NCBI GenBank assembly: GCA_014302835.1
Contig: CP060294.1
Location: 2,295,067-2,319,066, forward strand
Source of the DNA: Pedobacter sp. PAMC26386
GTDB taxonomy: Bacteria > Bacteroidota > Bacteroidia > Sphingobacteriales > Sphingobacteriaceae
Direction: 5' to 3'
DNA length: 24,000 nt
Shown: positions 994 through 20,302 of the stretch, one piece after another
Numbering within the stretch: position 1 is the stretch's first letter
How the letters are laid out: each line of letters begins with the position of its first letter
Made by a program: the position numbers and the translations under genes
Notes under the pieces: model-generated
What the model was told of the DNA's origin: nothing
Database searches by the model: none
Seen by the model: the letters and a program-made list of their open reading frames with translations, nothing else

Positions 994-1048
994 TATAAAA
1001 ACCATCAATTAATTTCATCAAAGAGAAGAATTGATTAACCTTGTATAT

Positions 1049-1864
1049 ATGGCCACCAGAATTAACGATATCTTAAGAAAGAAACTCTACATTATCATTT
1101 TCAAATCGGATACCAAGGCGGGTAAGTTATTTGATCTTGTCTTGCTTTGGGTTATTCTATTGAGCATTCTTTCTGTTTTTCTAGAGAGTGTGGCCAGTTT
1201 CAGGGCTCAGTACCTGATCTATATCCGTATTGTAGAATGGATTTTCACCATATTTTTCACACTGGAATATGCCCTTCGCATTTATAGCACTGATAAACCG
1301 GCTAAATACATTTTCAGTTTTTACGGATTAATCGATATCATCGCTTTTTTACCAACCTACCTGAGTTTGTTTCTTGCCGGAGCACATTACCTGGTAGTTA
1401 TTCGTGCATTCAGATTGCTCAGAGTTTTTAGAATTTTAAAATTAAGTCGTTTCACAAGCGAAGGAAATATCTTAAGAAATGCGCTTAAAAACAGCTTGTA
1501 TAAAATCACTGTATTCCTGGCTAGTGTCATTACACTGGTTACCATTATAGGTACCTTAATGTACATTATCGAAGGAGATGCAAGTGGTTTCACCAGTATC
1601 CCTGTTTCTATTTACTGGGCAATAGTCACCATTACTACTGTTGGTTACGGTGACATTTCGCCACAAAGCCCTTTAGGTCAACTTCTGGCTAGCATACTAA
1701 TGATTATCGGTTATGGCATTATTGCTGTACCTACTGGCATTGTCTCTGTAGAAATGGCTAGGGCAACCGAAGAAGCCAAAGAGAAATGCCCAGTATGTTA
1801 TGCACCAATTTATCCGGCTAATGCCAGATTTTGTTCCAGATGCGGGAAAGAATTAAAGACTTAA
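1049..1864 (+). CDS. Voltage-gated K+ channel (6TM ion-transport family) with C-terminal zinc-ribbon
   Basis: The S4 voltage-sensor segment has a basic residue at every third position (RAFRLLRVFRILKLSR). The canonical K+ selectivity filter TTVGYGD is present. The C-terminus has CPVC-x13-CSRC. I prefer the ATG at 1049 (MATRINDIL...); the ORF track starts at an upstream TTG at 1031. Confidence 0.85.
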   Translation: MATRINDILRKKLYIIIFKSDTKAGKLFDLVLLWVILLSILSVFLESVASFRAQYLIYIRIVEWIFTIFFTLEYALRIYSTDKPAKYIFSFYGLIDIIAFLPTYLSLFLAGAHYLVVIRAFRLLRVFRILKLSRFTSEGNILRNALKNSLYKITVFLASVITLVTIIGTLMYIIEGDASGFTSIPVSIYWAIVTITTVGYGDISPQSPLGQLLASILMIIGYGIIAVPTGIVSVEMARATEEAKEKCPVCYAPIYPANARFCSRCGKELKT

Positions 1865-3106: not shown

Positions 3107-3589
3107 ATGAACTGCAAAACACAAACATTTATTGTTGGTCTGCTTGCTTTACCAATTTTATTGGTTAGCTGTGCCAGAACATCAAGGATGCATAACCTGG
3201 CGCTAGTCAAGAGTACTTATGAAGGAAAAACTTCAGAAGAAAATGGCAAAAATCTTGCAAACGCCCTTGCTCCAGATGCCCGATGGACAGAGGCCGCTGG
3301 CTTTCCATATGCAGGTACTTATATTGGAATTGACGAAATTACTAAAAATGTCTTTCAAAGATTAGCAACAGAATGGACTGATTATAAAGTACAAATAGAT
3401 GATTATATAGTTAGAGGAGATAAGGTTGTAGCCATAGGCACCTATAGCGGGATTTACAAAAAAACAGGTAAAAGTTTTAAAGCTAGAGTTGCACATGTCT
3501 GGGAACTTAAAGATGGTAAAATTATAAGTTTTGAGCAGTTCGTAGATAGTAAATCCCTGACTGATGCGATGGTAGCTACTGTTCATTAA
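3107..3589 (+). CDS. SnoaL-like / NTF2-fold lipoprotein
   Basis: A lipoprotein signal (LLVSC) is followed by about 130 aa with the pattern of ketosteroid-isomerase-like NTF2 proteins (...RVAHVWELKDGKIISFEQFVDS). Confidence 0.6.
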   Translation: MNCKTQTFIVGLLALPILLVSCARTSRMHNLALVKSTYEGKTSEENGKNLANALAPDARWTEAAGFPYAGTYIGIDEITKNVFQRLATEWTDYKVQIDDYIVRGDKVVAIGTYSGIYKKTGKSFKARVAHVWELKDGKIISFEQFVDSKSLTDAMVATVH

Positions 3590-4280
3590 TAATTCTATAA
3601 TCGGACGGTATGGAGAAGATGTCCTCATCAATTTTTATCTTTTTTACACGTATGGCCATCATGCCTATTCTCATGCCATTTTCCTGGGAATATATTTCCA
3701 GTGCACTGCCAGGTAATTGCCTCAAATATGCCTCCCTACCTCTATAATGTGAAGGAATTTTATCAGTATACCAAACAACAATCTCTACACCAGGTATTTT
3801 GGGATTTATAAAAATAGCCTTCCTGCAAGAAAACCCCAGAATACATTTTTCTTCATCTGAGAAACTGACTTTATAATCACCAGCACTAATAACTATTGCA
3901 ATATTGTCTTCCATTTCTTCCTCCACATAAGAAGCATCTCTGAATTTCCTGCTGGCTTCTTTCTTCCCGTGATTTAAAATGTAATAAAAAGCATCACCCT
4001 TCCTGCTTAAAGTAACCCGATCAGCTGATGACTTTTCTTCCGTCCGCATTTGCTGATCGGTCACATAACAAGTAAAATACCCCTTCTCTCTTTCGGCCAG
4101 CATCATATCTTTTATAAACCCCTCTAATAATTTACCCCCATCAGAATCATCAAGAGGTATATTCTGGATTAGTAAACCATACTTAATCTCCCATCCTTCC
4201 AATTTCTTTCTCGTCTGTTGTGAGCATACCCTGGAAGATTGCATGAGCAATAGCATCACTAAAATTTTAAGATTTTTCAT
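3576..4280 (-). CDS. GLPGLI-family-like secreted protein (divergent member)
   Basis: It has a signal peptide. The C-terminal pattern ILGFSCRKA...VVWYTDKIPSHYRGREAYLRQLPGSALEIY parallels the family signature ILGYxCxKA...AWYTxxIPxxxGPxxxxGLPGLILE. It lies 10 nt downstream of the anti-sigma gene. Confidence 0.5.
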   Translation of the reverse strand: MKNLKILVMLLLMQSSRVCSQQTRKKLEGWEIKYGLLIQNIPLDDSDGGKLLEGFIKDMMLAEREKGYFTCYVTDQQMRTEEKSSADRVTLSRKGDAFYYILNHGKKEASRKFRDASYVEEEMEDNIAIVISAGDYKVSFSDEEKCILGFSCRKAIFINPKIPGVEIVVWYTDKIPSHYRGREAYLRQLPGSALEIYSQENGMRIGMMAIRVKKIKIDEDIFSIPSDYRIINEQ

Positions 4281-4290
4281 TGACTAAACT

Positions 4291-4593
4291 TTATAAAACT
4301 GTATCCCCCATAACTCCTGTTTTTTGAACCAGCTTATCTTGAATAAGTCCTTTCAAATTATTCTTAAAGTCATCACTAAGGTTTATTCTTTTATCTTTCA
4401 AAAATTTCTGATTCCTCTTCATCATACAGTCAATCAGTAAACTTTGTTCCTGAAAAATGCGGCAAACCGGGCAATCTTTTAAATGAATCAGCAATCTGAT
4501 TTCATCCATCACTGCAATTCCTTCCGTATGCTTTCTCTCTACTAAAAAGATAGCTTTACGACAACAGCAGGTAATTTTTTTCAATGTATTCAT
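4291..4593 (-). CDS. Soluble zinc-finger (ZAS, RsrA-like) anti-sigma factor
   Basis: 100 aa with no hydrophobic TM stretch. The motif H37-LKD-C41-PV-C44 is an exact HxxxCxxC, and a CCC triplet ends at C11. It lies 6 nt downstream of an ECF sigma gene. Confidence 0.65.
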   Translation of the reverse strand: MNTLKKITCCCRKAIFLVERKHTEGIAVMDEIRLLIHLKDCPVCRIFQEQSLLIDCMMKRNQKFLKDKRINLSDDFKNNLKGLIQDKLVQKTGVMGDTVL

Positions 4594-4599
4594 ATGCTT

Positions 4600-5199
4600 T
4601 TATATCCAGTTTGTTTGAAGACAATCTCTAAGATTAAGTTTGGTACGGTGAATGATTACCCAAAAATTAGCATGCGTTATACATAAATTTTCACAAATTG
4701 CATAAGTATCTTCTTCATCCAGATATTTCATAGTAAAGACGGCAGACCATAATGGCGGAAGCTTAGACAGACATCCTCTTAAAATTTCATTAAATTCTTC
4801 ATTAATTAATAGTTCCTCTATATCAGCACTAAAACTTTGCGGAACATGTTCTTCTTTCCATTGTCCGCTTTCTTTTTCAAAAAAATTCTCCTGCTGTTTT
4901 TCAGCTTCATCCATTCTCATTTTTCCGTTCAACCCTGAAGAGTTTTTCCGATAGGTATCAATAATTTTGTTTTTAAGAATAGCAGTAAGCCAGGTAATTT
5001 CCTTACTTCTTCCTTCAAATTTATGAAGACTTTCAAGCGCTGCTAAAAAGGTTTCCTGAACAAGATCTCTTGCCGTTTCATCATCGCTAATTCTGGAAAG
5101 CGTATAACGATAAAGGAAATCTGAATAGTGATCAACCCATAAATGGGGATCGATGACTATCTTCTTTTTTGAGGGCGCCGTTTTTCTATCAATCTGCAT
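4600..5199 (-). CDS. ECF-type RNA polymerase sigma-70 family factor
   Basis: Region 2 is present (ARDLVQETFLAALESLHKFEGRSKEITWLTAILKNKIIDTYRK), as is a region 4 helix-turn-helix (LPPLWSAVFTMKYLDEEDTYAICENLCITHANFWVIIHRTKLNLRDCL). Confidence 0.85.
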   Translation of the reverse strand: MQIDRKTAPSKKKIVIDPHLWVDHYSDFLYRYTLSRISDDETARDLVQETFLAALESLHKFEGRSKEITWLTAILKNKIIDTYRKNSSGLNGKMRMDEAEKQQENFFEKESGQWKEEHVPQSFSADIEELLINEEFNEILRGCLSKLPPLWSAVFTMKYLDEEDTYAICENLCITHANFWVIIHRTKLNLRDCLQTNWI

Positions 5200-5231
5200 A
5201 AGTGATCAGGATGTATATAACTATCCCACTT

Positions 5232-5258
5232 AGTCGTGACACTTCACAGATCCTTACA
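5232..5258 (-). promoter_or_regulatory. Candidate ECF-type promoter of the sigma/anti-sigma/GLPGLI operon (TGTAAGG-N15-CGACT)
   Basis: The minus-sense sequence reads ATTGTAAGG-atctgtgaagtgtca-CGACTAAG and ends about 32 nt upstream of the sigma ATG (5199). The motif and spacing are identical to those of the plus-strand site at 5448-5474. Confidence 0.55.
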
Positions 5259-5447
5259 ATTATCTTACGCGATTTATTAATAATAATAAATTAACCTAGC
5301 ACCTCGTTTAATTATCTAATTAAATCCATAACTCAAAGAAACAAAACCTGGATTCCCTGTTCAGTTCATTCCAGGATCAATTTTCTCAAAACTTTCCAAA
5401 CAAGATTCTTCGCAGATTGATCAGGATCAATGTTTTTTCATTTCTGT

Positions 5448-5474
5448 TGTAAGGTTTGCCAATGAACTGCGACT
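5448..5474 (+). promoter_or_regulatory. Candidate ECF-type promoter of the nine-gene YHS-to-LysE array (TGTAAGG-N15-CGACT)
   Basis: The plus-sense sequence reads GTTGTAAGG-tttgccaatgaactg-CGACTTAA and ends 38 nt upstream of the ATG at 5513. It is the mirror partner of the site at 5232-5258. I found no TAnnTTTG housekeeping box in this spacer. Confidence 0.55.
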
Positions 5475-5512
5475 TAACACTAAAAAACAATCCACTTCAT
5501 CAATTCAAAATC

Positions 5513-5977
5513 ATGAAAAACTTATTTGCAGTTTTAGTATTATCGGTTATTAGTATTTGTAGTGTTTCGGCCCAGACAGCCAATCACAAAAATCAGTTCA
5601 ATGTAGATAAATCAGCCCTGGCAATAGAAGGTTATGACCCTGTAGCCTACTTTACATCAAGCAAGCCCATAAAAGGAAAAAAAGAATTTAACCTGACTGC
5701 AGAAGGAGTTACCTATCAATTTGCCAACGCCCAGAACAAAAATACATTCAAAGCCAATCCGGCAAAATATGAACCTCAATATGGTGGCTGGTGTGCTTAT
5801 GCAATGGGTGCAACAGGAGAAAAAGTAAGTGTTGACCCGGAGACTTACAAAATAATCAATGGGAAATTATTTCTATTCTACAATAGGTTTTTCAACAATA
5901 CGCTGAAAGACTGGAATAAAGACGAGTCCAATCTAAAAATCAACGCCGATAAAAGCTGGGCAAAGTTTAATCCATAA
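5513..5977 (+). CDS. Secreted YHS-domain (seleno)protein-family protein, Cys form, copy 1
   Basis: The signal peptide is MKNLFAVLVLSVISICSVSAQ. Family pattern: GYDPVAYF...KG...F...NP.KYEPQYGGWCAYAM...GKLFLFYN. The ORF track extends to a TTG at 5456, but that extension overlaps the candidate promoter and has no signal peptide. Confidence 0.75.
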   Translation: MKNLFAVLVLSVISICSVSAQTANHKNQFNVDKSALAIEGYDPVAYFTSSKPIKGKKEFNLTAEGVTYQFANAQNKNTFKANPAKYEPQYGGWCAYAMGATGEKVSVDPETYKIINGKLFLFYNRFFNNTLKDWNKDESNLKINADKSWAKFNP

Positions 5978-6010
5978 GCACTTAAATCATCGTCCATAAA
6001 TAAGAAAAAA

Positions 6011-6454
6011 ATGAAAAAATTATTAGTAGTAACTACTTTCCTCCTATTCGCAATTTTTAGTGCACGGGCTCAAAAATCAGAAATATTTGTCACCGGGAAT
6101 AAAGCAATCAGAGGTTATGATCCCATTGCATTTTTCAAAGAATCAAAACCGGTAAAAGGTGATGAAAAACTATCTTATAACTGGAAAGATGCGACCTGGC
6201 TATTTTCCACTCAGCAAAACTTAGATGACTTCAAAACGTCGCCAGAAAAGTATGCTCCACAATATGGTTGTTACTGTGCATATGGCACGGCCGATGGACA
6301 TAAGGCTCCAACCCAAACTGAGACCTGGACTATTGTTGGCGACAAACTCTATTTCAATTATAACAATAAGGTAAAACAGCTTTGGGATAAAAATCAGAAA
6401 GCACTAATTGAAAAGGCCGACCAACAGTGGATAGATATCAAAGAGAAACCCTAA
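6011..6454 (+). CDS. Secreted YHS-domain (seleno)protein-family protein, Cys form, copy 2
   Basis: It has a signal peptide. The sequence IRGYDPIAFF...KG...SPEKYAPQYGCYCAYG...DKLYFNYN marks it as a paralogue of the upstream gene. Confidence 0.75.
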   Translation: MKKLLVVTTFLLFAIFSARAQKSEIFVTGNKAIRGYDPIAFFKESKPVKGDEKLSYNWKDATWLFSTQQNLDDFKTSPEKYAPQYGCYCAYGTADGHKAPTQTETWTIVGDKLYFNYNNKVKQLWDKNQKALIEKADQQWIDIKEKP

Positions 6455-6465
6455 ACTAAATTATC

Positions 6466-7089
6466 TTGGAAATAGAAAAGCAATTAAAGTTCTTGCTGAC
6501 CATAGGATTCATCTTATGGTCAATGGGTATTAAAGCACAGGATACCGCCAAAATATCCATCACCACTAGTGTGGGTTTAGTACATATTACAGGTAAGCTG
6601 GGCAATACATTTAAATCGGCCGTTGCCTTTAATACAGGTTTAGAGCTTCAATTGAAACACAATTGGTTTATACAGGGCGAAATCAGTTTCAATACACTTG
6701 GTTATCATCAGCAAGTCAGGGACGCAGGTTCAACTTATCTTTTCACGAATGCAAACAGCTCTTTATTACAGGTAGGTGGTATAGGCGGAAAGGACTTTAC
6801 CATTCAAAAAGATAAATGGTTTATTGGTCTTTATTTAGGTGCAGGCTATCTCAATATTGGCGAGCCCAGAATTACTGTAGATGTTGCTAACAATACAGCC
6901 AGACAGGATGTGGTAAGAATGAGTAACATTTATGGAAAAGGAGGCAGCAGGATATCTTATAAGACTAAATCTCCATTTTTTCAAACAGTGTATCTGGACG
7001 CATCTTATTTTGCTTCACCCGTTAAACTGCAAGGTGAACACTTAAACGGAATTTCTCTTTTCATAGGGACTAAGTTCAGTCTTAAATAA
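6466..7089 (+). CDS. Small outer-membrane beta-barrel protein (porin-like, family unassigned)
   Basis: The signal peptide ends IKAQ. Alternating hydrophobic beta-strand patterns run through the protein, and the C-terminal strand is ...LFIGTKFSLK. The start is a TTG, because the next in-frame ATG would delete the signal peptide. Confidence 0.55.
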   Translation: MEIEKQLKFLLTIGFILWSMGIKAQDTAKISITTSVGLVHITGKLGNTFKSAVAFNTGLELQLKHNWFIQGEISFNTLGYHQQVRDAGSTYLFTNANSSLLQVGGIGGKDFTIQKDKWFIGLYLGAGYLNIGEPRITVDVANNTARQDVVRMSNIYGKGGSRISYKTKSPFFQTVYLDASYFASPVKLQGEHLNGISLFIGTKFSLK

Positions 7090-7095
7090 TAGAAT

Positions 7096-7764
7096 ATGAA
7101 TTATTTAAAAGCCTGTATCAAAGTATTAATTACAGCTGGTCCAACCAGAGAGCCAATTGATCCGGTACGCTACCTGACCAATCGTTCTTCCGGAAAAATG
7201 GGTTATGCAATTGCCGAAGTGTTTTTGAAAATAGGATTCGAAGTCATCCTGATTTCAGGCCCCGTTGAACTGAGTTTATATCATTCAAGACTTCGCTTAA
7301 TCAAGGTTGGTTCTGCACAGGAGATGTATAATGCAGCACAACAATATTTTGAAGCTACAGAAATTGCAGTATTTACAGCAGCTGTTGCTGATTACCGGCC
7401 AGCAGAAATAGCAGAATACAAACTCCAGAAAAAAGAAGATTCTTTCCAATTGCAAATGGTTAAAAATATAGATATCGCCTTTGAATTTGGGTTGAGAAAA
7501 ACTAAAAACCAAATCGCTATAGGATTTGCATTAGAAACAGATCATGAACTAGACAATGCAGTAAAGAAGATCTGGGCTAAGAATCTTGACCTGGTGATCT
7601 TAAATTCCACACAGGATGAATTTGCAACTTTTGGTTATGACACTAATAAGATTGCTATGATTTACCCGGATGCGTCAATTGTAAATTTCCCATTGAAACC
7701 AAAAATACAGGTTGCTAAAGATATCGTCATGGCAGCCATTAATCTAAAAGCTCAAAAGGTTTAA
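7096..7764 (+). CDS. coaB: Stand-alone CoaB-type phosphopantothenate--cysteine ligase-like protein (DFP C-terminal domain only)
   Basis: [40 protein letters not shown], KLQKK and MVKNIDI align by eye with the E. coli CoaBC ligase half ([49 protein letters not shown]). At 222 aa it has no flavin-dependent decarboxylase (CoaC) half. Confidence 0.8.
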   Translation: [222 protein letters not shown]

Positions 7765-7792
7765 AATTCAACATTGCTTTAATAAAAGAAAG

Positions 7793-8200
7793 ATGACAAT
7801 CAAACAAAAAAATATAACCTACTGGATTTTGAGACTCACCGCAGCATTCATCCTCCTCCAAACGCTATTTTTCAAATTTACAGGGGCAGAAGAATCTGTT
7901 TATATCTTTTCTACTCTTGGGATGGAGCCTTGGGGAAGAATTGGTACAGGAATCGTGGAACTTATAGCCGCTATACTTATCCTCATTCCCAGAACAACTG
8001 CTATTGGTGCAGTTATAGGCATGGGAATGATGAGTGGGGCATTATTATCTCACCTTACCGTACTTGGAATTGTGGTTAAAAATGATTCAGGAGCATTATT
8101 TATTTACGCATTAATCACCTTTATCTGCTGTTTTCTGCTCGCTTATGCTTTCCGTACACAGTTAATTCAGTTATTAAAAAAAGTAAACATCAAAATATGA
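7793..8200 (+). CDS. DoxX-family inner-membrane protein
   Basis: 135 aa with four hydrophobic helices. The N-terminal ILRLTAAFILLQTLFFKFTG and the IGTGIVELIAAILILIPRT pattern are typical of DoxX proteins. Confidence 0.65.
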   Translation: MTIKQKNITYWILRLTAAFILLQTLFFKFTGAEESVYIFSTLGMEPWGRIGTGIVELIAAILILIPRTTAIGAVIGMGMMSGALLSHLTVLGIVVKNDSGALFIYALITFICCFLLAYAFRTQLIQLLKKVNIKI

Positions 8201-8706
8201 CAATGCATTTAAATAAAACGATTTCATCTTTACTTGCACAACTTCAAAATTTGCTGGAAGAACTCTCAGATGAACAATATTGTATGCCAGTAATTGCGTT
8301 GTCCAATGCAACCCTTGGACAGCATACACGGCATATTGCAGAGTTTTACCTGGAGCTTGATCATGGTTACCAGAACGGTATCGTCAATTACGACAACCGA
8401 AAAAGAAATTATAAAATTGAGACTTTCAGAATTTTCACCATTCACCTGCTTCAGGAAATTTCAGCAGGCATGATTAAAGAAAATAAGGAACTCAAGCTTA
8501 TCGCCGACTATGGAACAGCCATAAATGACGAAATCTGTATAGTAGAAACCAATTATTTCAGAGAATTACTCTATAATCTGGAACATACTGTCCATCATAT
8601 GGCACTGATGAGAATTGGTGTGACGGCTGTCTCGGGTATCATATTGCCAGTAGATTTCGGCGTAGCTGCTTCTACTATAAAATTCAGAAAAACATGTGCA
8701 CAGTAA
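8197..8706 (+). CDS. DinB-fold (DinB_2-like) metal-dependent protein
   Basis: A four-helix-bundle-style sequence carries a His triad pattern: GQHTRHIAEF near the N-terminus and LEHTVHHMALM near the C-terminus. The start overlaps the DoxX stop (ATGA). Confidence 0.55.
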   Translation: MTMHLNKTISSLLAQLQNLLEELSDEQYCMPVIALSNATLGQHTRHIAEFYLELDHGYQNGIVNYDNRKRNYKIETFRIFTIHLLQEISAGMIKENKELKLIADYGTAINDEICIVETNYFRELLYNLEHTVHHMALMRIGVTAVSGIILPVDFGVAASTIKFRKTCAQ

Positions 8707-10481
8707 CCTTTATTCCTTCAAATAGTGGAATTCATATCACCTCTAACAGAGATGAACATGCTACACGAAGCCGGGCTATCCGTCCAAAAAAGTATGTAAC
8801 TAATGGATACGAATTGATCTATCCAAAAGATGAGGATGGTGGTGGCAGCTGGATTGCGACCAAAACCAATGGTGACGCTGCGGTCTTGTTAAACGGAGCC
8901 TTTATCAAACATATTCCCGCCCTGTCTTACCGTAAAAGCAGGGGTTTGATCTTTCTTGAAGTAATTCAGGCAAATGAGCCAGCTGGGCATTTTAAGACAA
9001 TCGATCTTGAAAACATTGCCCCTTTTACCCTGGTTCTTTATTCAGGTGGACAGCTACGTACCTTAAGATGGGATGGTCTTCGTAAACATAATCTATTGAT
9101 GGATGAAAGTATACCGCATATCTGGTCTTCCGTTACCCTTTACGAGCAAGAAATAGTAAATGATAGAGAACGCTGGTTTAAAACATGGATTGAATCTGAT
9201 CAGGAATTAAATAAAGATAAAATTCTTCACTTTCATCGCTTTGCTGGAAACGGTGACCCGGAAAATGATCTGATCATAGATAGAAAAAGTAAGCTGTCTA
9301 CAGTAAGTATTACTTCTGTTTTTGTATCCTCTTTCAGTACATGTTTAACTTACCTTGACCTGAAAGCTAATCAGAAATATGTTGTATCACTCAGTTGCAG
9401 GCAGGATAAGATCGTTACAGATGGCCAGTTATACAAGATCGGATGGGCAACAAAACGCTTGTTGATTAAGACTTTCAATTGGGAATACTGGCCTTTTCAA
9501 TTGGTCTATATTCCTATGTATGTATATTGGTTCTGGCTTAGTTTTAAAGCGCGTTCCTTTTTCTTTTTTAGTGCGGCAAATCCCCTGATTGAAAATAGTG
9601 GGTTTGCATTGGAAAGAAAAAGCAAAATCTATGATACGATTCCTAAAGCCTATTATCCGAAAACAACACTTATTGAGCCGGATATAGAAATAGCACAACT
9701 AGAAAAGATGCTGGAAAAAGATGGGTTTAATTTTCCTCTAATTGCAAAACCTGATATTGGAGAAAGGGGTGTAAAGGTAAAAATTTTGCATCATGCAGAG
9801 GATCTTAGAGCATACAAGACAGAAAGTAAAGTAGATTTTCTGATTCAGGATTTTATTGATTATGAACAGGAGGCAGGAATATTCTATTACCGGATTCCCG
9901 GAGAAAAAAGAGGCCATATTTCTGGTATCGTTGGAAAGGAATTTCTGGCAGTTACCGGTAATGGTAGGTCAACTATAATAACGTTACTTCAACAGGAAGA
10001 TCGTTATATTCTGCAATTACCCGTATTAAAAACGCTTTATGGCAATTTTCTCCAAACCATTTTACCTGAAGGTGTCCGCCATATACTAGTTCCTTATGGC
10101 AATCACAGTCGTGGTTCAAAATTTACAGATCTAAGCCATAAAATTAATGAAGAATTAGTAAACGCAATAGATCATATATGCAGCAAAGTTCCTGAGTTCT
10201 ATTTTGGCCGGCTGGACATCAAATTTAAAAACTGGGAAGATCTGTCTAAAGAAAAAAACTTCTCGATCATTGAGTTGAATGGTGCGGGGAGTGAGCCCAC
10301 ACATATCTATGATCCAAAACATTCTATCTTTTTTGCTTGGAAGGAAATCATCAGACATTGGGATTTACTTTTTAAGATCAGCAGAATGAATGCCCGTCGT
10401 AAGGGCTTAAGATTGATGGGAACAACTGAAGGAATGAAAATGCTGAGAGATCATACTGAACATTTAAAACTAATCGCTTAA
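8694..10481 (+). CDS. Fusion protein: N-terminal NRDE/TANGO2-family domain + hydrophobic linker + C-terminal ATP-grasp ligase
   Basis: The N-terminus reads MCTVTF...TSNRDEH...GGGSWIA...GDAAVLLNG, which parallels human TANGO2 (MC...ANRDE...GGTWLG...G..AALTN). The linker is WEYWPFQLVYIPMYVYWFWLSF. ATP-grasp hallmarks are FPLIAKPDIGERGVKVKIL, FLIQDFIDYEQEAGIFYY and IIELNGAGSEPTHIYD (E-x-N metal site). It is a single uninterrupted 595-codon frame. Confidence 0.7.
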   Translation: MCTVTFIPSNSGIHITSNRDEHATRSRAIRPKKYVTNGYELIYPKDEDGGGSWIATKTNGDAAVLLNGAFIKHIPALSYRKSRGLIFLEVIQANEPAGHFKTIDLENIAPFTLVLYSGGQLRTLRWDGLRKHNLLMDESIPHIWSSVTLYEQEIVNDRERWFKTWIESDQELNKDKILHFHRFAGNGDPENDLIIDRKSKLSTVSITSVFVSSFSTCLTYLDLKANQKYVVSLSCRQDKIVTDGQLYKIGWATKRLLIKTFNWEYWPFQLVYIPMYVYWFWLSFKARSFFFFSAANPLIENSGFALERKSKIYDTIPKAYYPKTTLIEPDIEIAQLEKMLEKDGFNFPLIAKPDIGERGVKVKILHHAEDLRAYKTESKVDFLIQDFIDYEQEAGIFYYRIPGEKRGHISGIVGKEFLAVTGNGRSTIITLLQQEDRYILQLPVLKTLYGNFLQTILPEGVRHILVPYGNHSRGSKFTDLSHKINEELVNAIDHICSKVPEFYFGRLDIKFKNWEDLSKEKNFSIIELNGAGSEPTHIYDPKHSIFFAWKEIIRHWDLLFKISRMNARRKGLRLMGTTEGMKMLRDHTEHLKLIA

Positions 10482-10482
10482 G

Positions 10483-11127
10483 ATGCCGGGACATAGTAAG
10501 ATAACATTATATGCATTGGTCATCAGCTTCTTAGGCTCTTTGCCCCTGGGTACATTAAATCTTAGTGTGGCTAATTTTGTATTTAAAGATAATATTCCGG
10601 GGGCAATTGCCTTTGCTATTGCGGCAATAGTTGTAGAGATTGTACTAGTCAGGATAGCTTTGGTTACCGTAAACAGACTGGAAGGTTTGAAGCGCTTTTA
10701 TAAACTGTTTAACATAGTGACCTGTTTAATCCTGATTGTGCTTTCTATGATTAGCCTCAACGCTGCCTACAATAGGTGTAAATTTGAGGCTGGTCTACCC
10801 TTTTCAAACCTGAATCCCTTTCTTTCGGGTTTGTTGCTCAGTGTGATCAATCCACTGCACCTGCCATTCTGGATGGGCTGGACAGCAGTACTGAAGTCTA
10901 AAAATATTTTAGACCATTCCCTGGGGTCTTATAATGTATATGTTGCTGGGATTGGGATAGGTACGTCGCTTGCTTTTCTAACTTATGGTACAATTGGACA
11001 TCTCCTCATTACCAATTTGCTGAACTATCAGATATTGCTGAACTGGCTGGTAGGGATTACGCTGTTACTCACAGCGTTGATACAATTTTATAAAACATTT
11101 TTTACTCCAATAAAAAAACTCATATAA
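10483..11127 (+). CDS. LysE/RhtB-type small-molecule exporter
   Basis: About six hydrophobic helices. The N-terminal FLGSLPLGTLN and the central LSVINPLHLPFW resemble LysE-family motifs. The start lies 1 nt after the stop of the fusion gene. Confidence 0.6.
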   Translation: MPGHSKITLYALVISFLGSLPLGTLNLSVANFVFKDNIPGAIAFAIAAIVVEIVLVRIALVTVNRLEGLKRFYKLFNIVTCLILIVLSMISLNAAYNRCKFEAGLPFSNLNPFLSGLLLSVINPLHLPFWMGWTAVLKSKNILDHSLGSYNVYVAGIGIGTSLAFLTYGTIGHLLITNLLNYQILLNWLVGITLLLTALIQFYKTFFTPIKKLI

Positions 11128-11152
11128 TATTATTTGAGATAAAATAAATCTA

Positions 11153-11197
11153 TTTTTCATCGGCATGCTTTTCGATGAAAAACATGCCGATGAAAAG
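11153..11197. terminator. Long hairpin between convergent genes (likely transcript-end structure for both)
   Basis: TTTTCATCGGCATG (11154-11167) pairs perfectly with CATGCCGATGAAAA (11183-11196). After one C.A mismatch, five further pairs close a 3-nt loop. On the minus strand a U-rich tract (auagauuuauuuuau) follows a few nt after the stem. There is no immediate U-run on the plus strand. Confidence 0.5.
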
Positions 11198-11212: not shown

Positions 11213-12865
11213 TTACCAACCTGGATTCTGTTTCAAATTCGGATTTAGTGCCAATTCCTGTGTAGGAAGCGGGTTTAAATATAATTTATCATTCCATGTT
11301 CGTGTAATTCCGGGATAAATCAGGATATAGCTATTCCCATCAACCACAATATTATTTACCTGACTAGCGGGATATTGTGCCTTAAGAGCTGCTGTAAGCT
11401 TCATGCCCAAGATGGTTTCCGGATTATTTATCAAAGTACCAGCGTGCCATCTGTGCATATCGTCAAAACGGAAACCCTCAGCACCAAGTTCTATTCTTCT
11501 TTCTCTCCGTATTTCATCAGTGAGTACAGGAAGACCAGGGAAATTTGATTTTGGATCTTTAACCAAGCTGGCCAGAACCATATGTGCCATCCCTACCCGA
11601 TCTCTCAGTTTGTTTATAGTCAGATCTAGTGTGACCTGTGTGCAAGTACCTAATTCTGCTTTGGCTTCAGCCGAGATCAGCAATTGTTCAGCATAACGGA
11701 AAATAAAAAAATCATAAACACTTTGATTTGCATTCCATGCAGCCTGACTGGACGACCGTCCTTTAATTGGCTGATAACCAGTTGAAGTAACCGAAGTCCC
11801 TATCCTTGGTAAGGTGATGAAATCACCATTCAAAAAATCAAATCCTCTGGTAGCTATTTGCTGAGCATAACGCGGATCACGATTAGCCACCTCGTTTTCA
11901 GGCGTATCATCTCCTTTATATAGAGGACTTAATGAAGTGGGTAAACCATCTGTACACAAAAAGGAACGAACAAAATCTTTACTGTAACCATCACTTGATT
12001 CTCCTAATGACCTATCAATATTGTTCATCAATATATTAGTTAAATACCGCATAGGCATTATAACTTCGGGATTACCCTTTAACTCATCCTGAATAAACAA
12101 ATTATAATAATCGGATTGTGGCTTTCCTGTACTGTAAAGATTAAACAGGCCCGACTTTATAATCTGATCGGCAGCGTCAGAAGCAGCTTGCAAAAAGGGA
12201 GTTTCATCTCCAACTCCAAAATACTTCCTGTAAGTCCCCTCCCACAAGCAAATCCTTGCTTTCAATGCCAATGCGCAATATTTGTTTAAACGCCCATCTG
12301 GTGCGCTTACTGGCAGATGATCAACTGCAAAATTCAAATCCTTCAAAACTGAATCCATCACTTGTTTATGAGCCATCCTTGAACCATATAAAACTGTTTT
12401 AGAAGTATCGGTAATATAAGTGTTTATATAAGGTACATCGCCGAAAGTCTTAACCTTCCTCCAAAAATCATTCGCTCTGAAAAACAAGGTCTCCCCAACG
12501 TATATATTTTTTGTATTGTCACTTATATTAGCTCTGGAGTAATTGGCCAGAAAAAAATTACAAGACCTGATGAAACTAAAATCCCAGCCCCCACCTGTAT
12601 TTGGTACTGTTGCTGTACCAGCCAGAAAGGAATTAATTTGCGTATTGGCCTTGTCATCAGAACCATTATCTGCCCTTAAAAAGGATTGAACAGGCAGTTG
12701 AGAATAATATTGATTACAATATAATTGTAAATCACTCTCGTTTTTAAAAAAGTTTTGCGGACTGATATCACTTAAGGGTGCGCGGTTAAGAAAACTGTCC
12801 TTTTTGCAGGAAGCAAAAACTGTAACAGCAAAAATTGTCAGATATATGATAAGTCTATTTTTCAT
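11213..12865 (-). CDS. RagB/SusD-family nutrient-binding outer-membrane lipoprotein
   Basis: The lipoprotein signal is ...VFASCKKD. TPR-like SusD architecture. The C-terminal ...YLNPLPTQELALNPNLKQNPGW is typical of SusD homologues. It lies 34 nt downstream of a SusC-type gene. Confidence 0.9.
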   Translation of the reverse strand: MKNRLIIYLTIFAVTVFASCKKDSFLNRAPLSDISPQNFFKNESDLQLYCNQYYSQLPVQSFLRADNGSDDKANTQINSFLAGTATVPNTGGGWDFSFIRSCNFFLANYSRANISDNTKNIYVGETLFFRANDFWRKVKTFGDVPYINTYITDTSKTVLYGSRMAHKQVMDSVLKDLNFAVDHLPVSAPDGRLNKYCALALKARICLWEGTYRKYFGVGDETPFLQAASDAADQIIKSGLFNLYSTGKPQSDYYNLFIQDELKGNPEVIMPMRYLTNILMNNIDRSLGESSDGYSKDFVRSFLCTDGLPTSLSPLYKGDDTPENEVANRDPRYAQQIATRGFDFLNGDFITLPRIGTSVTSTGYQPIKGRSSSQAAWNANQSVYDFFIFRYAEQLLISAEAKAELGTCTQVTLDLTINKLRDRVGMAHMVLASLVKDPKSNFPGLPVLTDEIRRERRIELGAEGFRFDDMHRWHAGTLINNPETILGMKLTAALKAQYPASQVNNIVVDGNSYILIYPGITRTWNDKLYLNPLPTQELALNPNLKQNPGW

Positions 12866-12899
12866 TTTTCAACAGATTAAAATTTAATAAAAACTAATA

Positions 12900-15800
12900 C
12901 TATAATGTAGCCTGCAAGCCAACAGAAACTGATCTGTTGATAGGATAAGTCCTATAATTCCCGCCAGTGGTGATGATTTCCGGGTCATATCCTTTAAACA
13001 AAGAAGTAATAGTAAATAAATTAGCACCAGTAACATATACTCTTACTTTTTGCATTTTCAGTCTGCTGATCAATTGCTTTGGCAGGGAATAACCTAATGT
13101 TAACTGTTTGATTCTCGCATAAGCTGCATTTTGCAGATACTTAGTCTGTGTCTGTTTATTGCCCTGACCACTAAACCTTGGACGTGCAAAATAAGCAGTT
13201 GGATTCTCAGGAGTCCAATAATCAGTAGTAGATTTATATGGCAAATCATATTCACTGTTGTTAAAAGAATAAAATACATTATCATTTGGTGCATAATCAG
13301 CTTTTAATACACCCTGAACAAAAGCAGCAAAGTCAAAATCTTTATAGGATAGATTCAGGTTAAAACCGAACCTGTAACGTGGAGTGCTATTTCCTATAAT
13401 TTTCTTATCTCCTGGATTAGCCAATGTATTATTCCCATAACCAATCTTCCCATCATGGTTCAAGTCCGCATACTTAACGTCTCCAGCCAGCCATTTATAG
13501 CCTGCCAACGCCGAATTATCCATACTGGCAGCTTCAGCATCAGTTTGATAAAAACCCAGAGTTTGATAGCCCCAGATATTCCCCAGTTTCTCTCCTGGAT
13601 AATGATCGTCTATATTAAATGTAGGATTTAATGCATACTTAGTAATCGTACTAGAGGCATCTGAGACACCCAGGGTTACATTATAAAGTAACTGATTATC
13701 AAATACGCGGTCTCTCCATCCGACGCTAAATTCCCATCCCTTTGTACGCAGACTAGCTTGATTCAACAATGGCGCCCCGGTTCCTAATACTGCCGGCAAT
13801 TTCTGACCGTCCACAAGCATATCTTTTGTATCTGTAATAAAATAATCAAAACTACCACTTAGCTTATTATTTAATAAGGTATAATCAAGTCCAATATTTT
13901 TAGTCTGAACTTTTTCCCAGGTGAGTGTTGTACTAATCAAACCCGGAGTGTTGACCACAATACCGGGTTGGTTATTAAACAAATAACCCACAGTACCAGT
14001 ACCCTGAGTAGCAATATATGGATATTGCGCTCCAGCAGAGATCGCATCCGACGGGGTTTGCTGATTAGGTAACTGTCCATAAGAGGCTCTTATCTTCAAT
14101 TCATTAATCGTGTTTTTAGCACCCTGCATAAAAGATTCTTCGGTAATATTCCATCCTGCAGATACTGAAGGAGAGAATGCATAACGGTGATCTGCCGGAA
14201 ACCTCGATGTACCATCATATCTCCCATTAATCTCCAATAAATATCTTTTATCATAGATGTAATTAAGTCTGAAAAAAGTACCTACCAAAGCGTATTCTGT
14301 TTCTGTACCACCTACCACAGGTTTGGTATCAGTATTTGTTCCAATAGCTGGTAGGTAAGGATCAATCAGGCTTTTAGCCAGAGAGTTACTTAGCTGATAA
14401 TGCTGATATTCTTGATTATAACCCAAAAGTGCCTTGAAATAATGTTTCTTATTAAAGGTATTTTCATAGGTAGTATAGATATTCAAAGCATTATAATTGT
14501 TATTCCTCCTGTTTTCATTTACTTGTGAAGGGTTTGTCCAGGGAAATACACCTAATAAAACACCGTCTACTCCATATTCATTGAATGGAATTACATTTGA
14601 TTTTTGGAACTGCGAAAAGGCATTCCACGTATAATCAGCGGTAACTGTAAGATGATCCACCGGTTTTAAGATCACACGACCTGTTGTCCAGAAATCATTC
14701 TGAGAATTAATATCTCTGCCAGACAGATTAATCACCGCAACCGGGTTAGTATAACTTCCCTGTCCAGAATAATGTCCATCCGGATGATAAACAGGCATAA
14801 GTGGTCTTAAATCACCAGGGATCCAGGCTCCACCCTGATTAATAATCGTATTTGCGGCCTGGTTATTATTTGTATTTGTCATCGACATGTTCAAATTAAA
14901 GGTGATCCATGAAGTAACATCTGAATTGATTTTTAGACTTGGCGTATATCGTTTATAAATCTGGTTAGCTACTTTCTCAAGACCGTCTTGTTTAAAATAA
15001 CCTAAACTGGCTGAGTAGGTAGTCTTTCCTTCCCCACCAGATACGGATAAATTATGCTGTTGCTGAGGCGCCCAGCCAGGATAGAGTACTTTAATCCAGT
15101 CAGTATTTCCTACATACCTGTATAATTTTGGATTGCCAGGATCTGGATAGACGGCTGGATTATTTGCGGGATCTCTAAAAAAAGCATCGGCCATAATAGA
15201 ATCTCTTGCGGTAAAAGGACTGCCAGAAACAGAACCGCCAGTCCGGCTTCCTGTTCGCTGGGCATCATTAAACATTTTAATATACTCCTGCGAATTAAGA
15301 TAAGCAGGCATTATAGTAGGTCTTGAAGTGGTATATGAACCAGAGTAACTGATTTGTGTCACACCCTTTTTACCGGTTTTGGTAGTAATTAAAATTACCC
15401 CATAGGCTGCTCTGCTTCCGTAAATCGCTGAAGAAGCTGCATCTTTTAAAACTGTTACACTGGCTACATCATTCGGATCTATCAAGTTTGGATCACGTTG
15501 TATACCATCTACCAAAACTAGTGGTCTGGAACTTGAATTAGAGCCAATTGTAGTATATCCCCTGATGTTAAATGTAGCACTTGTGCCAGGCTGCCCATTA
15601 TTAACATTTACATTCAAATTGGGAATAAGGCCATTCAAGCCATCCCCAAGGTTCACAAGCGGCCTGCTTTCCAGTTTTTCACTCCCTATGGTTGCAATTG
15701 CACCAGTTAAATTAACTTTCTTCTGTGTGCCATAACCTACTACTACCACTTCACTCAACTTACCTTCATCGGCTTCTAGTCTGACTATCATTTCTATACC

Positions 15801-16385
15801 TGGAGTTACAGATAGCTCTTTAGGTATAAAACCGATAGAGGAAAAGATAAGTATTGCTTCTTTATCAGGAACAGTAATTTTAAATTTACCATTGGCATCT
15901 GCTACAACTACGGTTTTGCTGCCTTTTACTTTCACAGTAACACCAGGTATGGGTTTATTACTATCATCATTCACCTGTCCAATAATCACTATTGGATTAA
16001 TCGTGTTTTTAATTGCAGGAATTATCATCATCTCCTGTATTATAATTGTTTTATCGACAATTTTATAAATCAAGGGCAGGTTCTTAAAACACTCCTTTAA
16101 TGCCTGATCAATGGAGGCATTATTAAGCTGTACACTATTTATGCTTTTGTTTCTGATATCTTTTGAGTCATAAAAAAAAACATATCCAGTCTGTTTATGG
16201 ATCAATTCAAAAACTTTTTTAACAGCTATTTTTCTTTCATTCAGAATGATATTCTGACTATATCCTTCAGCGCTTACCTGTACAAGGGTGATCAGGATTA
16301 ACAGACTAGTTAATTTCATATACAGAAATATTTTTTTGGGTAACCACATTCTATATGCAGCCAAAAAGAAAGCATTTATTTTCAT
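12900..16385 (-). CDS. SusC/RagA-family TonB-dependent transporter with N-terminal STN signalling domain
   Basis: An STN-like segment is present (VFELIHKQTGYVFFYDSKDI...IDQALKECFKNLPLIYKIVDKTIIIQE). A carboxypeptidase-regulatory-like domain follows (GQVNDDSNKPIPGVTVKVKGSK...ADANGKFKI). The SusC signature VVVVGYGTQKKVNLTGA, the plug and a 22-strand barrel length are all present. An alternative start is at Met23 (16319). Confidence 0.9.
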   Translation of the reverse strand: MKINAFFLAAYRMWLPKKIFLYMKLTSLLILITLVQVSAEGYSQNIILNERKIAVKKVFELIHKQTGYVFFYDSKDIRNKSINSVQLNNASIDQALKECFKNLPLIYKIVDKTIIIQEMMIIPAIKNTINPIVIIGQVNDDSNKPIPGVTVKVKGSKTVVVADANGKFKITVPDKEAILIFSSIGFIPKELSVTPGIEMIVRLEADEGKLSEVVVVGYGTQKKVNLTGAIATIGSEKLESRPLVNLGDGLNGLIPNLNVNVNNGQPGTSATFNIRGYTTIGSNSSSRPLVLVDGIQRDPNLIDPNDVASVTVLKDAASSAIYGSRAAYGVILITTKTGKKGVTQISYSGSYTTSRPTIMPAYLNSQEYIKMFNDAQRTGSRTGGSVSGSPFTARDSIMADAFFRDPANNPAVYPDPGNPKLYRYVGNTDWIKVLYPGWAPQQQHNLSVSGGEGKTTYSASLGYFKQDGLEKVANQIYKRYTPSLKINSDVTSWITFNLNMSMTNTNNNQAANTIINQGGAWIPGDLRPLMPVYHPDGHYSGQGSYTNPVAVINLSGRDINSQNDFWTTGRVILKPVDHLTVTADYTWNAFSQFQKSNVIPFNEYGVDGVLLGVFPWTNPSQVNENRRNNNYNALNIYTTYENTFNKKHYFKALLGYNQEYQHYQLSNSLAKSLIDPYLPAIGTNTDTKPVVGGTETEYALVGTFFRLNYIYDKRYLLEINGRYDGTSRFPADHRYAFSPSVSAGWNITEESFMQGAKNTINELKIRASYGQLPNQQTPSDAISAGAQYPYIATQGTGTVGYLFNNQPGIVVNTPGLISTTLTWEKVQTKNIGLDYTLLNNKLSGSFDYFITDTKDMLVDGQKLPAVLGTGAPLLNQASLRTKGWEFSVGWRDRVFDNQLLYNVTLGVSDASSTITKYALNPTFNIDDHYPGEKLGNIWGYQTLGFYQTDAEAASMDNSALAGYKWLAGDVKYADLNHDGKIGYGNNTLANPGDKKIIGNSTPRYRFGFNLNLSYKDFDFAAFVQGVLKADYAPNDNVFYSFNNSEYDLPYKSTTDYWTPENPTAYFARPRFSGQGNKQTQTKYLQNAAYARIKQLTLGYSLPKQLISRLKMQKVRVYVTGANLFTITSLFKGYDPEIITTGGNYRTYPINRSVSVGLQATL

Positions 16386-17720: not shown

Positions 17721-17801
17721 AATAATAGAAGTATGAATGAGTACTTATTACGCTACATAACAACCGATCCGGGATCAGGGAGTAGAAGAAAAATGAAATA
17801 A

Positions 17802-20254: not shown

Positions 20255-20302
20255 TTGAATATGATTGTCTTTTAATGCTGTGTTTATTTTACGGTTAACG
20301 GG

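Follow-up and report, generated by a model that had tools for sequence, protein, structure and literature searches.

We have analyzed a 24,000-nucleotide stretch of DNA from Pedobacter sp. PAMC26386 (called the window throughout), in which an operon of eight genes faces away from the genes for a sigma factor of the extracytoplasmic function (ECF) type and for a small anti-sigma factor. Within the operon lies a module comprising a DinB-like protein, a cysteine N-terminal nucleophile (Cys-Ntn) hydrolase domain of the NRDE/TANGO2 family, an ATP-grasp amide ligase and a translocator. This combination matches no characterised system. It is common to hundreds of Bacteroidota species, in at least 590 genomes, with clear core and accessory parts, a promoter motif and several architectures. 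We tentatively propose, giving the idea a little less than an even chance, that this is a sigma-controlled operon for oxidative or thiol stress of the envelope, which would direct the induced synthesis, turnover and export of a small amide-linked and probably sulfur-related metabolite.

The operon and its conserved module

The operon lies on the plus strand. Its eight open reading frames (ORFs) encode, in order, two YHS-domain proteins (YHS1 and YHS2), a barrel candidate, a CoaB-type protein, a DoxX protein, a DinB-like protein, a fusion of NRDE/TANGO2 and ATP-grasp domains, and a LysE-family protein. In what follows a tilde denotes fusion of domains within one protein.

5513 to 5977, plus strand: secreted YHS-domain (seleno)protein-family protein 1; NF041384, 137 bits against a cutoff of 70; motif GGWCAY
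6011 to 6454, plus strand: secreted YHS-domain protein 2; NF041384, 149 bits against a cutoff of 70; motif GCYCAY
6466 to 7089, plus strand: possible small outer-membrane beta-barrel; weak match to OMP_b-brl, 17.5 bits, under the cutoff of 28.7
7096 to 7764, plus strand: stand-alone CoaB-type (phosphopantothenate-cysteine ligase-like) protein; DFP (PF04127), 210 bits; no CoaC domain
7793 to 8200, plus strand: DoxX-family inner-membrane protein; DoxX_2, 31.7 bits against a cutoff of 26.3; several hydrophobic segments
8197 to 8706, plus strand: DinB-superfamily four-helix-bundle protein with a His triad, as predicted by AlphaFold2 with a predicted local distance difference test score (pLDDT) of 91; top Foldseek matches DinB/YfiT
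8694 to 9395, plus strand: NRDE/TANGO2 Cys-Ntn hydrolase domain, residues 1-234 of the fusion protein; TANGO2, 38.5 bits against a cutoff of 22.6
9426 to 9551, plus strand: aromatic-rich helices, residues 245-286, modelled by AlphaFold2 as helices 245-261 and 268-286 that open the ATP-grasp module
9591 to 10481, plus strand: ATP-grasp amide-ligase domain, residues 300-595 plus the stop codon; Foldseek matches, and RimK at 21.8 bits against a cutoff of 21
10483 to 11127, plus strand: LysE-family small-molecule translocator; PF01810, 27.0 bits against a cutoff of 25.6; multiple hydrophobic segments
11153 to 11197, no strand: hairpin of 15+5 bp between the convergent LysE and SusD genes; ΔG = -25.8 kcal/mol, z = -6.4 by folding

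Successive genes are separated by 33, 11, 6 and 28 nt, followed by overlaps of 4 nt (ATGA) and 13 nt (ATGTGCACAGTAA) and a final spacer of 1 nt. An earlier reading of the window (the original prediction) had counted nine genes in the array; its own seven junction distances, all of which are confirmed from the ORF coordinates, imply eight. The start codon of YHS1 is taken as ATG 5513 and not TTG 5456, because the latter sits within the promoter described below. A consensus terminator scan found no terminator-like site inside the array, and the same scan missed the real hairpin at 11153-11197 because a T-run is absent. The hairpin was therefore checked by folding, and it is probably a bidirectional terminator.

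The fusion protein has 595 amino acids, is 100% identical to a protein of Pedobacter sp. PAMC26386 and was modelled at a pLDDT of 86.8. Its N-terminal domain is placed in the NRDE/TANGO2 family by the Pfam match, by Cys2 and by the N-R-D-E residues. Residues C2, N18, R19, D20 and E21 are invariant in 51 sequences, and correspond to Cys2, Asn25, Arg26, Asp27 and Glu28 of human TANGO2, where the N-terminal nucleophile Cys2 and the conserved NRDE motif have been discussed (PMC13044924). Foldseek matches the domain to human TANGO2 (9bwa and 8sv7, E ~1e-10, TMt 0.6) and to isopenicillin-N acyltransferase (2x1d). The C-terminal domain is matched to the G domain of cyanophycin synthetase CphA1 (2e-10), the ATP-grasp domain of GshF (5e-10), Ddl and LysX/ArgX, in the range 1e-10 to 1e-7. 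Its ATP-binding lysine (K352) and the E527 and N529 of the Mg-binding E-x-N are invariant, and it belongs with the ATP-grasp amide ligases. As modelled, the protein is a catalytically intact Cys-Ntn hydrolase joined to an ATP-grasp of the amino-acid-ligase type.

The two helices that open the ATP-grasp module are retained in stand-alone homologues of about 350 amino acids. We considered a transmembrane reading of these helices and rejected it, since their hydropathy is too low. Being aromatic-rich and too polar to cross the membrane, residues 245-286 probably form an interfacial membrane anchor in the predicted structure.

The four-helix bundle and His metal triad seen in the model of the DinB-like protein are those of the DinB/YfiT proteins. 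Foldseek matches include 2f22 (TM score 0.64/0.74), 3gor, 2qe9, 6iz2 and 1rxq, and H43, H46, H130, H133 and H134 are invariant. The window protein scores 15.2 bits with DinB_2, which is below the Pfam cutoff, and 27 of 34 orthologues match that family. Searching PDB sequences with the family profile gave matches at chance level only, and there was no sequence-level assignment to the MST or BstA subfamilies (MST E = 0.044). Most characterised enzymes of the DinB superfamily carry out thiol chemistry. The gene overlaps DoxX on its upstream side by the ATGA and NRDE on its downstream side by the 13 nt, and from these overlaps it is translationally coupled to both. A near-invariant C-terminal CAQ in the protein was examined as a functional element and rejected. 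Nucleotides 8694-8706 also encode the invariant M-C-T-V that starts the NRDE domain, so that CAQ is forced by the overlap in the other frame.

Both YHS proteins are members of NF041384, and both start with a hydrophobic stretch that, judged by eye, resembles a signal peptide. Their conserved Cys lies at the position occupied by selenocysteine in some family members; it is invariant in 178 of 178 tblastn alignments, and no selenocysteine (in-frame TGA) occurs at this position in the related loci. YHS2 of the window carries a CxC motif, GCYCAY, where related loci have GGWCAY, GGYCAY or a close variant. Since GCYCAY is found in none of them, the second Cys of YHS2 is strain-specific. A sequence search of YHS2 against the PDB gave no match. 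The LysE protein is assigned to its family by the PF01810 score above cutoff and by its multi-pass character. LysE-family proteins are known as exporters of small solutes, not as flippases.

Relatives of the fusion protein were found in at least 590 species-representative genomes. We compared 80 loci with 10-kb flanks from the Sphingobacteriia, Chitinophagia, Cytophagia and Flavobacteriia, identifying neighbors by tblastn; each count covers only loci with enough flank, hence the differing denominators.

DinB-like gene immediately upstream of the fusion gene: 76 of 78 loci
NRDE fused to ATP-grasp: 75 of 78 loci
DoxX: 61 of 72 loci
YHS: 60 of 72 loci
LysE: at least 39 of 74 loci

Judged by gene order, the conserved unit is YHS-(YHS)-DoxX-DinB-NRDE~ATP-grasp-(LysE) in four classes of Bacteroidota. 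The CoaB-type gene (3 of 72 loci) and the barrel candidate (0 of 72) are rare or absent, and are thus lineage-specific insertions. Conservation of the whole neighborhood, which the original prediction had proposed as a check, therefore holds for DoxX, the DinB-like gene, NRDE~ATP-grasp, LysE and YHS, and fails for CoaB and the barrel. Accessory neighbors that recur are a DM13 lipoprotein (24 loci), YceI between DoxX and DinB (13 loci), further outer-membrane barrels and DUF1223. One of the loci (L030, CALRLC020000002.1) comes from a metagenome-assembled contig titled 'Brevundimonas vancanneytii'. It has a Sediminibacterium-type gene order and a fusion protein of 46% identity, and the label is probably an error of binning or naming.

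An exhaustive search with the ATP-grasp module gave 2,744 cluster representatives, mostly stand-alone proteins of about 350 amino acids. The other architectures are LysE~ATP-grasp (for example P0421 and P0394), DedA/VTT~ATP-grasp, alpha/beta-hydrolase~VTT~ATP-grasp, ATP-grasp~YqcI/YcgG and ATP-grasp~MORN. Variant loci are arranged as follows.

L086: DinB, then a LysE~ATP-grasp fusion; no NRDE
L087: YHS, DoxX, DinB, then NRDE and ATP-grasp as separate genes
L088: DinB, NRDE, then VTT~ATP-grasp
L089: DinB, NRDE, then abhydrolase~VTT~ATP-grasp
L025, 7210-14091: separate NRDE and ATP-grasp ORFs, with an upstream ATP-grasp paralogue, YceI, LysE, a second (classical) DinB and an amino-acid permease fragment

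A DinB orthologue lies immediately upstream in all three loci where ATP-grasp is fused to a membrane domain, and also in the split locus L087; NRDE is usually present. The DinB-like protein and the membrane-associated ATP-grasp are kept across the variant architectures and thus form an invariant pair. On the evidence of these gene arrangements the module is DinB, a Cys-Ntn hydrolase (usually NRDE), a membrane-associated amide ligase and an interchangeable translocator, either LysE or DedA/VTT. Further out in the ATP-grasp family, a stand-alone protein of 32% identity adjoins MsrA (L091, 5001-6826); close by are genes for a Dps/ferritin protein and for an aminotransferase resembling cysteine desulfurases, and the locus has no DinB or NRDE gene. 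An ATP-grasp~YqcI/YcgG fusion (L090, 385-2713) is followed by a DUF1989 gene, which is a different context again. The module is thus confined to the closer part of the ATP-grasp family.

The CoaB-type protein has a DFP domain with the nucleotide- and substrate-binding motifs of CoaB. It matches PDB 5int at 4e-48, with ITAGPTREPIDPVR..SSGKMG and AAVADYRP as aligned motifs, and the 120 proteins nearest to it also stand alone, with lengths of 220-240 amino acids. The three related loci that carry the gene are from Mucilaginibacter, where it lies between YHS2 and DoxX; besides the window it is also present in L084, where the order is YHS-CoaB-DoxX-DinB-fusion-LysE. Every context of a CoaB paralogue that we examined holds regulon-type genes (YHS, DM13 or DoxX). 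From its patchy presence and its repeated placement beside such genes, the CoaB-type gene is an accessory paralogue dedicated to clusters of the YHS type and lies outside the core; given these contexts, it is very unlikely to be a housekeeping enzyme of the coenzyme A (CoA) pathway. CoaB does not hold the place of a core member that it was given in the original prediction, and the arguments drawn there from 'two amide-forming ligases' and a 'pantothenate-derived' product both rest on this accessory gene. On the same comparison of loci the barrel candidate is a strain-specific insertion outside the core.

A second type of CoaB cluster (L081, 653-7834; L082; L085, 3813-8720) contains tandem YHS genes, HbpS-like, SGL lactonase-like, DM13 and SDR genes, a uridine-kinase-like P-loop kinase and CoaB. 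It has no NRDE or ATP-grasp genes, and a Rieske/ferric-reductase gene lies opposite.

Promoter motif, sigma factor and regulon

The divergent genes and the two promoter sites are listed below, in order from the operon outwards.

5447 to 5474, plus strand: predicted ECF-type promoter of the eight-gene operon; exact TTGTAAGG-N15-CGACT, 38 nt upstream of ATG 5513
5232 to 5259, minus strand: predicted ECF-type promoter of the sigma operon; exact TTGTAAGG-N15-CGACT, 33 nt upstream of the sigma start codon
4600 to 5199, minus strand: ECF (group IV) sigma-70 factor; Sigma70_r2, 57.2 bits; TIGR02937, 79.5 bits against a cutoff of 42.9
4291 to 4593, minus strand: ZAS-type anti-sigma factor, small and soluble, 100 amino acids; C11-x25-H37-x3-C41-x2-C44; no hydrophobic segment
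3576 to 4280, minus strand: GLPGLI-like secreted protein; TIGR01200 GLPGLI, 45.9 bits, under the cutoff of 50; 10 nt downstream of the anti-sigma gene

The motif TTGTAAGG-N15-CGACT is present at exactly two sites in the window, divergently oriented and with zero mismatches. By chance 0.4 matches would be expected in the window even if up to two mismatches were allowed. The sigma protein contains only sigma-2 and sigma-4 domains and matches the ECF superfamily model, and the adjacent anti-sigma gene (6-nt gap) and the motif common to the sigma gene and the operon agree with this class assignment at the level of sequence. Its nearest NCBIfam model is TIGR02943 (135.6 bits, under the cutoff of 162.2), and Sigma70_r4_2 scores 20.8 bits, also under cutoff.

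The anti-sigma gene starts exactly 6 nt after the sigma gene. The motif C-x25-H-x3-C-x2-C is invariant in an alignment of 17 sequences from three classes, made up of the window protein and 16 orthologues; a membrane segment is absent from all 17. Possession of H-x3-C-x2-C with a Cys or His 23-26 residues upstream places the protein in the ZAS/RsrA type. Among curated models it matched no Pfam family at E ≤ 0.01, and NCBIfam antisigmaE scored 18.4 bits against a cutoff of 50. The association of sigma factor and ZAS protein is seen in three classes, which answers part of the adjacency check that the original prediction had set; the pair lies near the module in only about 17 of the 80 loci, and to that extent adjacency does not hold.

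The GLPGLI-like gene is probably the third gene of the sigma operon. It was not described in the original prediction, and tblastn found no homologue of it in the 80 related loci. A SnoaL-like lipoprotein gene (3107-3589) is convergent with it, and their 3' ends overlap by 14 nt.

Across relatives the conserved form of the promoter is TGTAAGG-N15-CG(A/T)C, found before both the sigma gene and the operon. The extended form tTGTAAGG-N15-CGAC(A/T)AA occurs 24 times in ten loci of Sphingobacteriaceae, always 30-60 nt before a start codon, and the genes behind it encode the sigma factor, YHS1, DM13 and other secreted proteins. Sigma genes with the motif upstream are those of L001, L002, L012, L013, L014, L016 and L020. 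The operon in Chitinophagaceae is preceded by a variant with CGTC or CGTA at -10, which is kept even where no sigma gene is nearby; some of these loci have a sigma/ZAS pair (about 40% identity) embedded inside the operon, with the variant motif present. A relaxed motif gave 90 sites in 2.95 Mb; for 31 of them, spread over 24 loci, a YHS, DoxX or sigma gene starts no more than 110 nt downstream. The promoter consensus defines an ECF regulon spanning two classes. A Crp/Fnr-type regulator adjoins the module in 23 loci, mainly from Flavobacteriia; it is a frequent neighbor in Flavobacteriia and Cytophagia, whose loci lack the promoter motif.

In Mucilaginibacter the motif also precedes a CMD/AhpD-like gene, DM13 and outer-membrane protein genes, as well as DUF1223, behind which come cytochrome b561 and a molybdopterin oxidoreductase (MsrPQ-like). 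In L084 the module is bordered by genes for thioredoxin, MsrA and MsrB, and in L089 by one for AhpC. Judged from this gene content, the motif-linked genes are an envelope oxidative-stress regulon. The redox character that the original prediction had given to the regulon is borne out by the MsrPQ-like, CMD/AhpD-like, DUF1223 and DM13 genes behind the motif in relatives.

Most of what the original prediction had observed in the window stands. The profile scores, ORF coordinates and motif confirm an ECF sigma gene followed at 6 nt by a soluble HxxxCxxC anti-sigma factor; the duplicated promoter motif faces the sigma gene and the array with exact matches at both sites; and the junctions and the terminal hairpin are as described. 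Seven of the eight protein assignments are upheld: two secreted YHS proteins with Cys at the selenocysteine position of the family, CoaB without CoaC, DoxX and LysE by profile scores, the DinB fold by predicted structure and Foldseek, and NRDE/TANGO2 fused to ATP-grasp by profile scores and fold matches. The gene count was wrong, and the barrel match is weak.

Beyond the hairpin the minus strand holds two gene pairs of the SusD/SusC-like (TonB-dependent receptor) kind (11213-16385 and 18563-23557). Between them lie a FecR-type anti-sigma factor and a second ECF sigma factor (16593-18371), and the second SusC has an STN domain. This stretch is an ordinary trans-envelope signalling unit of the polysaccharide utilization locus type, unrelated to the operon. 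The other end of the window (1031-1864) encodes a protein of the ion-transport or K+-channel type, whose C-terminus holds a zinc-ribbon (CPVC...CSRC).

Proposed function and alternatives

In the mechanism that we favor, the sigma factor would be freed when oxidants or electrophiles attack the zinc-bound cysteines of its anti-sigma partner. The ATP-grasp ligase, at the inner membrane face, would couple an amino acid to a carboxylate to give a small amide-linked metabolite, most likely containing sulfur. The DinB-like metalloprotein would make or use this compound, and LysE would export it into the periplasm. There it could be used or recycled for redox protection by the cysteine-bearing YHS proteins and by DoxX, which is linked to quinones. 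The NRDE domain would cleave the same or a related amide in turnover or recycling. Because the nucleophile is an N-terminal Cys, this activity might be switched off by oxidation so that product accumulates, in the manner of glutathionylspermidine synthetase/amidase. In a few lineages CoaB would serve as an optional extra that raises the capacity for ligating cysteine or supplying CoA precursors. Envelope reduction under oxidant stress is poorly understood in Bacteroidota, and an inducible exported metabolite would fill that gap.

A sulfur or thiol product is favored, circumstantially, by the ZAS switch, the thiol chemistry of most characterised DinB-superfamily enzymes, the reported thiol link of DoxX, the Cys/selenocysteine site of the YHS proteins, the CoaB add-on, and the thioredoxin, Msr and AhpC neighbors. 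The interpretation offered by the original prediction fares in the same mixed way as its details, for the conserved unit, the ECF-type promoter and the redox content of the regulon are retained, and the roles of CoaB, pantothenate and the barrel are not.

A number of points weigh against our proposal. The support for sulfur in the product is circumstantial throughout, and both expression of the operon and its induction by stress are predictions from the sequence. The ZAS motif by itself does not separate redox-sensing from non-sensing ZAS proteins, and the DinB superfamily also includes non-thiol enzymes such as ClbS. LysE is found by tblastn in only about half of the loci. Because DedA/VTT proteins, which are linked to lipid flipping, can replace it, a lipid substrate fits at least as well as a soluble one. 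The NRDE domain is missing from L074, L075, L078 and L086, so it is not essential to the job of the ligase. Finally, no promoter motif was found within 110 nt upstream of module genes in loci of Flavobacteriia and Cytophagia, with the exception of Maribacter (L052), where there is a weak and degenerate match upstream of the sigma gene. Control by the sigma factor is therefore lineage-specific.

The exchange of translocators leads to a different reading, in which the module remodels the head groups of membrane lipids. The anchored ATP-grasp would add an amino acid to a lipid carboxylate, giving for example an aminolipid or a serine-containing lipid; NRDE or the alpha/beta-hydrolase would remove an acyl or aminoacyl group, and LysE or DedA/VTT would flip the lipid. 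Of known systems, MprF (a synthase and flippase) together with its partner hydrolase comes nearest to such a scheme. This is consistent with the DedA/VTT~ATP-grasp and abhydrolase~VTT~ATP-grasp fusions, with the aromatic-rich interfacial helices predicted at the start of the ATP-grasp module, and with the resemblance of TANGO2 to the lipid amidases acid ceramidase, NAAA and bile-salt hydrolase and its binding of acyl-CoA (PMC13044924, PMC11867700). DedA proteins have been reported as lipid flippases. However, the nearest structural neighbors of the ATP-grasp ligate soluble amino acids or peptides, the LysE family is known for exporting small solutes and not for flipping, and the DinB, DoxX, YHS and CoaB proteins are left unexplained. 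We consider lipid remodelling unlikely.

Detoxification of conjugates in the manner of the mercapturate pathway would give the DinB-like protein a more definite part. It would act as an S-transferase coupling a cellular thiol to quinones or electrophiles, NRDE would be the amidase that splits the conjugate, LysE would export the cysteine-S-conjugate, and ATP-grasp (with CoaB where present) would re-ligate cysteine and so restore the thiol. These roles match, by analogy, those of MST and Mca in mycobacteria and of BstA and Bca in Bacillus. The predicted DinB fold with its His triad is in accord with such a role, as are the presence in the neighborhood of DoxX and YceI, with their links to quinones and isoprenoids, and an accessory gene that is a cysteine-ligating CoaB paralogue. 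Yet known genes of thiol biosynthesis are present in none of the loci, the secreted YHS and DM13 proteins are given no role, and the module persists without NRDE in the four loci noted above. Moreover the fusions of ATP-grasp to translocators suggest that the product of the ligase is itself moved. This alternative, too, is improbable.

The accessory genes (CoaB, outer-membrane protein, YceI, DM13, DUF1223 and SDR) come and go, and no pathway can be reconstructed from known chemistry. Both observations would be expected if the operon encoded stress proteins that are co-regulated and biochemically independent, having a common promoter and membrane-stress context and no common metabolite. Against this, the DinB and NRDE genes are translationally coupled through a conserved overlap, DinB and ATP-grasp persist through four domain architectures, and LysE and ATP-grasp are directly fused in some proteins. 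Together these argue for physical and functional coupling, and make a collection of independent proteins distinctly unlikely.

A more specific form of the metabolite proposal would have the pathway make, turn over and export a new thiol amide related to cysteine or pantetheine, serving as a periplasmic redox buffer of Bacteroidota with NRDE as its oxidation-gated amidase half. We regard this narrower version as quite unlikely; if true, it would tell us on what class of substrate the TANGO2 family natively acts.

Repair or salvage of the thiol end of CoA or pantetheine, with NRDE cleaving an oxidised or alkylated cysteamine or cysteine end, ATP-grasp or CoaB re-attaching cysteine and LysE expelling the fragment, would accord with the binding of CoA and acyl-CoA by TANGO2 through its NRDE motif (PMC11867700), with the operon of several lineages having gained a bona fide CoaB paralogue and with the P-loop kinase that adjoins the CoaB paralogue in L081, but it is an argument from analogy throughout, CoaB is absent from more than 95% of loci and the core has no CoaC, PanK or other CoA gene, so that we consider it highly improbable.

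Relation to known systems

Full-text literature searches found no description of a module of DinB, NRDE, ATP-grasp and translocator, in keeping with the statement of the original prediction that no characterised pathway of this composition was known to it. Being well defined, the module lends itself to genetic work in tractable strains of Flavobacterium, Chitinophaga or Pedobacter. Pfam and NCBIfam searches of the operon proteins found none of the signature enzymes of low-molecular-weight thiols (GshA/GshB, BshABC, MshABCD and EgtBD), and the ATP-grasp domain resembles the ligase domain of GshF in fold only.

The regulatory layer is a further case of the familiar ECF/ZAS arrangement. Neisseria sigma-E/MseR and Haemophilus influenzae RpoE2/HrsE are ECF sigma factors, co-transcribed with small soluble ZAS anti-sigma factors, that respond to HOCl and H2O2 (PMC7907618, PMC2893595), and their regulons contain msrAB, a periplasmic molybdenum methionine-sulfoxide reductase, a transporter and a DoxX operon (PMC7907618). 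The Pedobacter locus shares with them the ECF sigma factor with a soluble ZAS anti-sigma factor, an envelope-repair regulon and a DoxX operon. It differs in phylum, promoter and the partners of DoxX, for the Neisseria and Haemophilus systems are without DinB, NRDE, ATP-grasp, LysE and YHS genes. Streptomyces SigR-RsrA is similar in having a soluble anti-sigma factor of about 100 amino acids with a Cys/His-x(23-26)-H-x3-C-x2-C zinc site, an autoregulated ECF sigma factor and a thiol/redox regulon. Unlike RsrA, the Pedobacter protein has no significant match to a ZAS model (18.4 bits in NCBIfam, none in Pfam), and its regulon is without the genes for mycothiol, thioredoxin reductase and proteolysis.

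For the biosynthetic part the likenesses are of analogy and not of family membership. Glutathionylspermidine synthetase/amidase (E. coli Gss) also joins an N-terminal Cys amidase to a C-terminal ATP-grasp synthetase. This is a similarity of architecture without homology, since the amidase of Gss is a CHAP domain, whereas the fusion protein has the Ntn/NRDE fold; Pfam gave only TANGO2 and RimK in the fusion protein, and no CHAP or GSP_synth domain. Three kinds of enzyme also meet in the ergothioneine pathway (EgtA/EgtB/EgtC) and in the S-transferase and amidase pathways of mycothiol and bacillithiol (MST/Mca among them): a ligase that forms an amide at the cost of ATP, a metalloenzyme whose DinB domain bears a His triad and which carries out sulfur chemistry, and an amidohydrolase, which in EgtC is of the Cys-Ntn type. 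The module differs from these in having no FGE-type domain, methyltransferase, pyridoxal phosphate lyase, glycosyltransferase or deacetylase, and its ligase and hydrolase are from other families. MprF with aminoacyl-phosphatidylglycerol hydrolase resembles the module as a set of synthase, translocator and hydrolase acting at the inner membrane and modifying the envelope under stress, but MprF uses aminoacyl-tRNA and has a fold different from that of the ligase of the module.

The hydrolase domain is related to the human disease protein TANGO2 and to Shewanella HtpA of the NRDE/DUF833 family, with which it shares the fold, Cys2 and the N-R-D-E residues. The biochemical function of this family is disputed (PMC13044924, PMC12782551). 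The question is clinically relevant, and proposals for the role of the family include a heme chaperone, a binder of acyl-CoA and an Ntn hydrolase. Gene contexts of the kind described here are not mentioned in the TANGO2 papers PMC13044924, PMC11867700 and PMC10470608. In contrast to TANGO2 and HtpA, the domain in Pedobacter shares a polypeptide with an ATP-grasp ligase, and its gene shows translational coupling to one for a DinB-like protein; a bacterial NRDE protein that is fused to a ligase, coupled to DinB and linked to a translocator offers a concrete route to candidate substrates of TANGO2.

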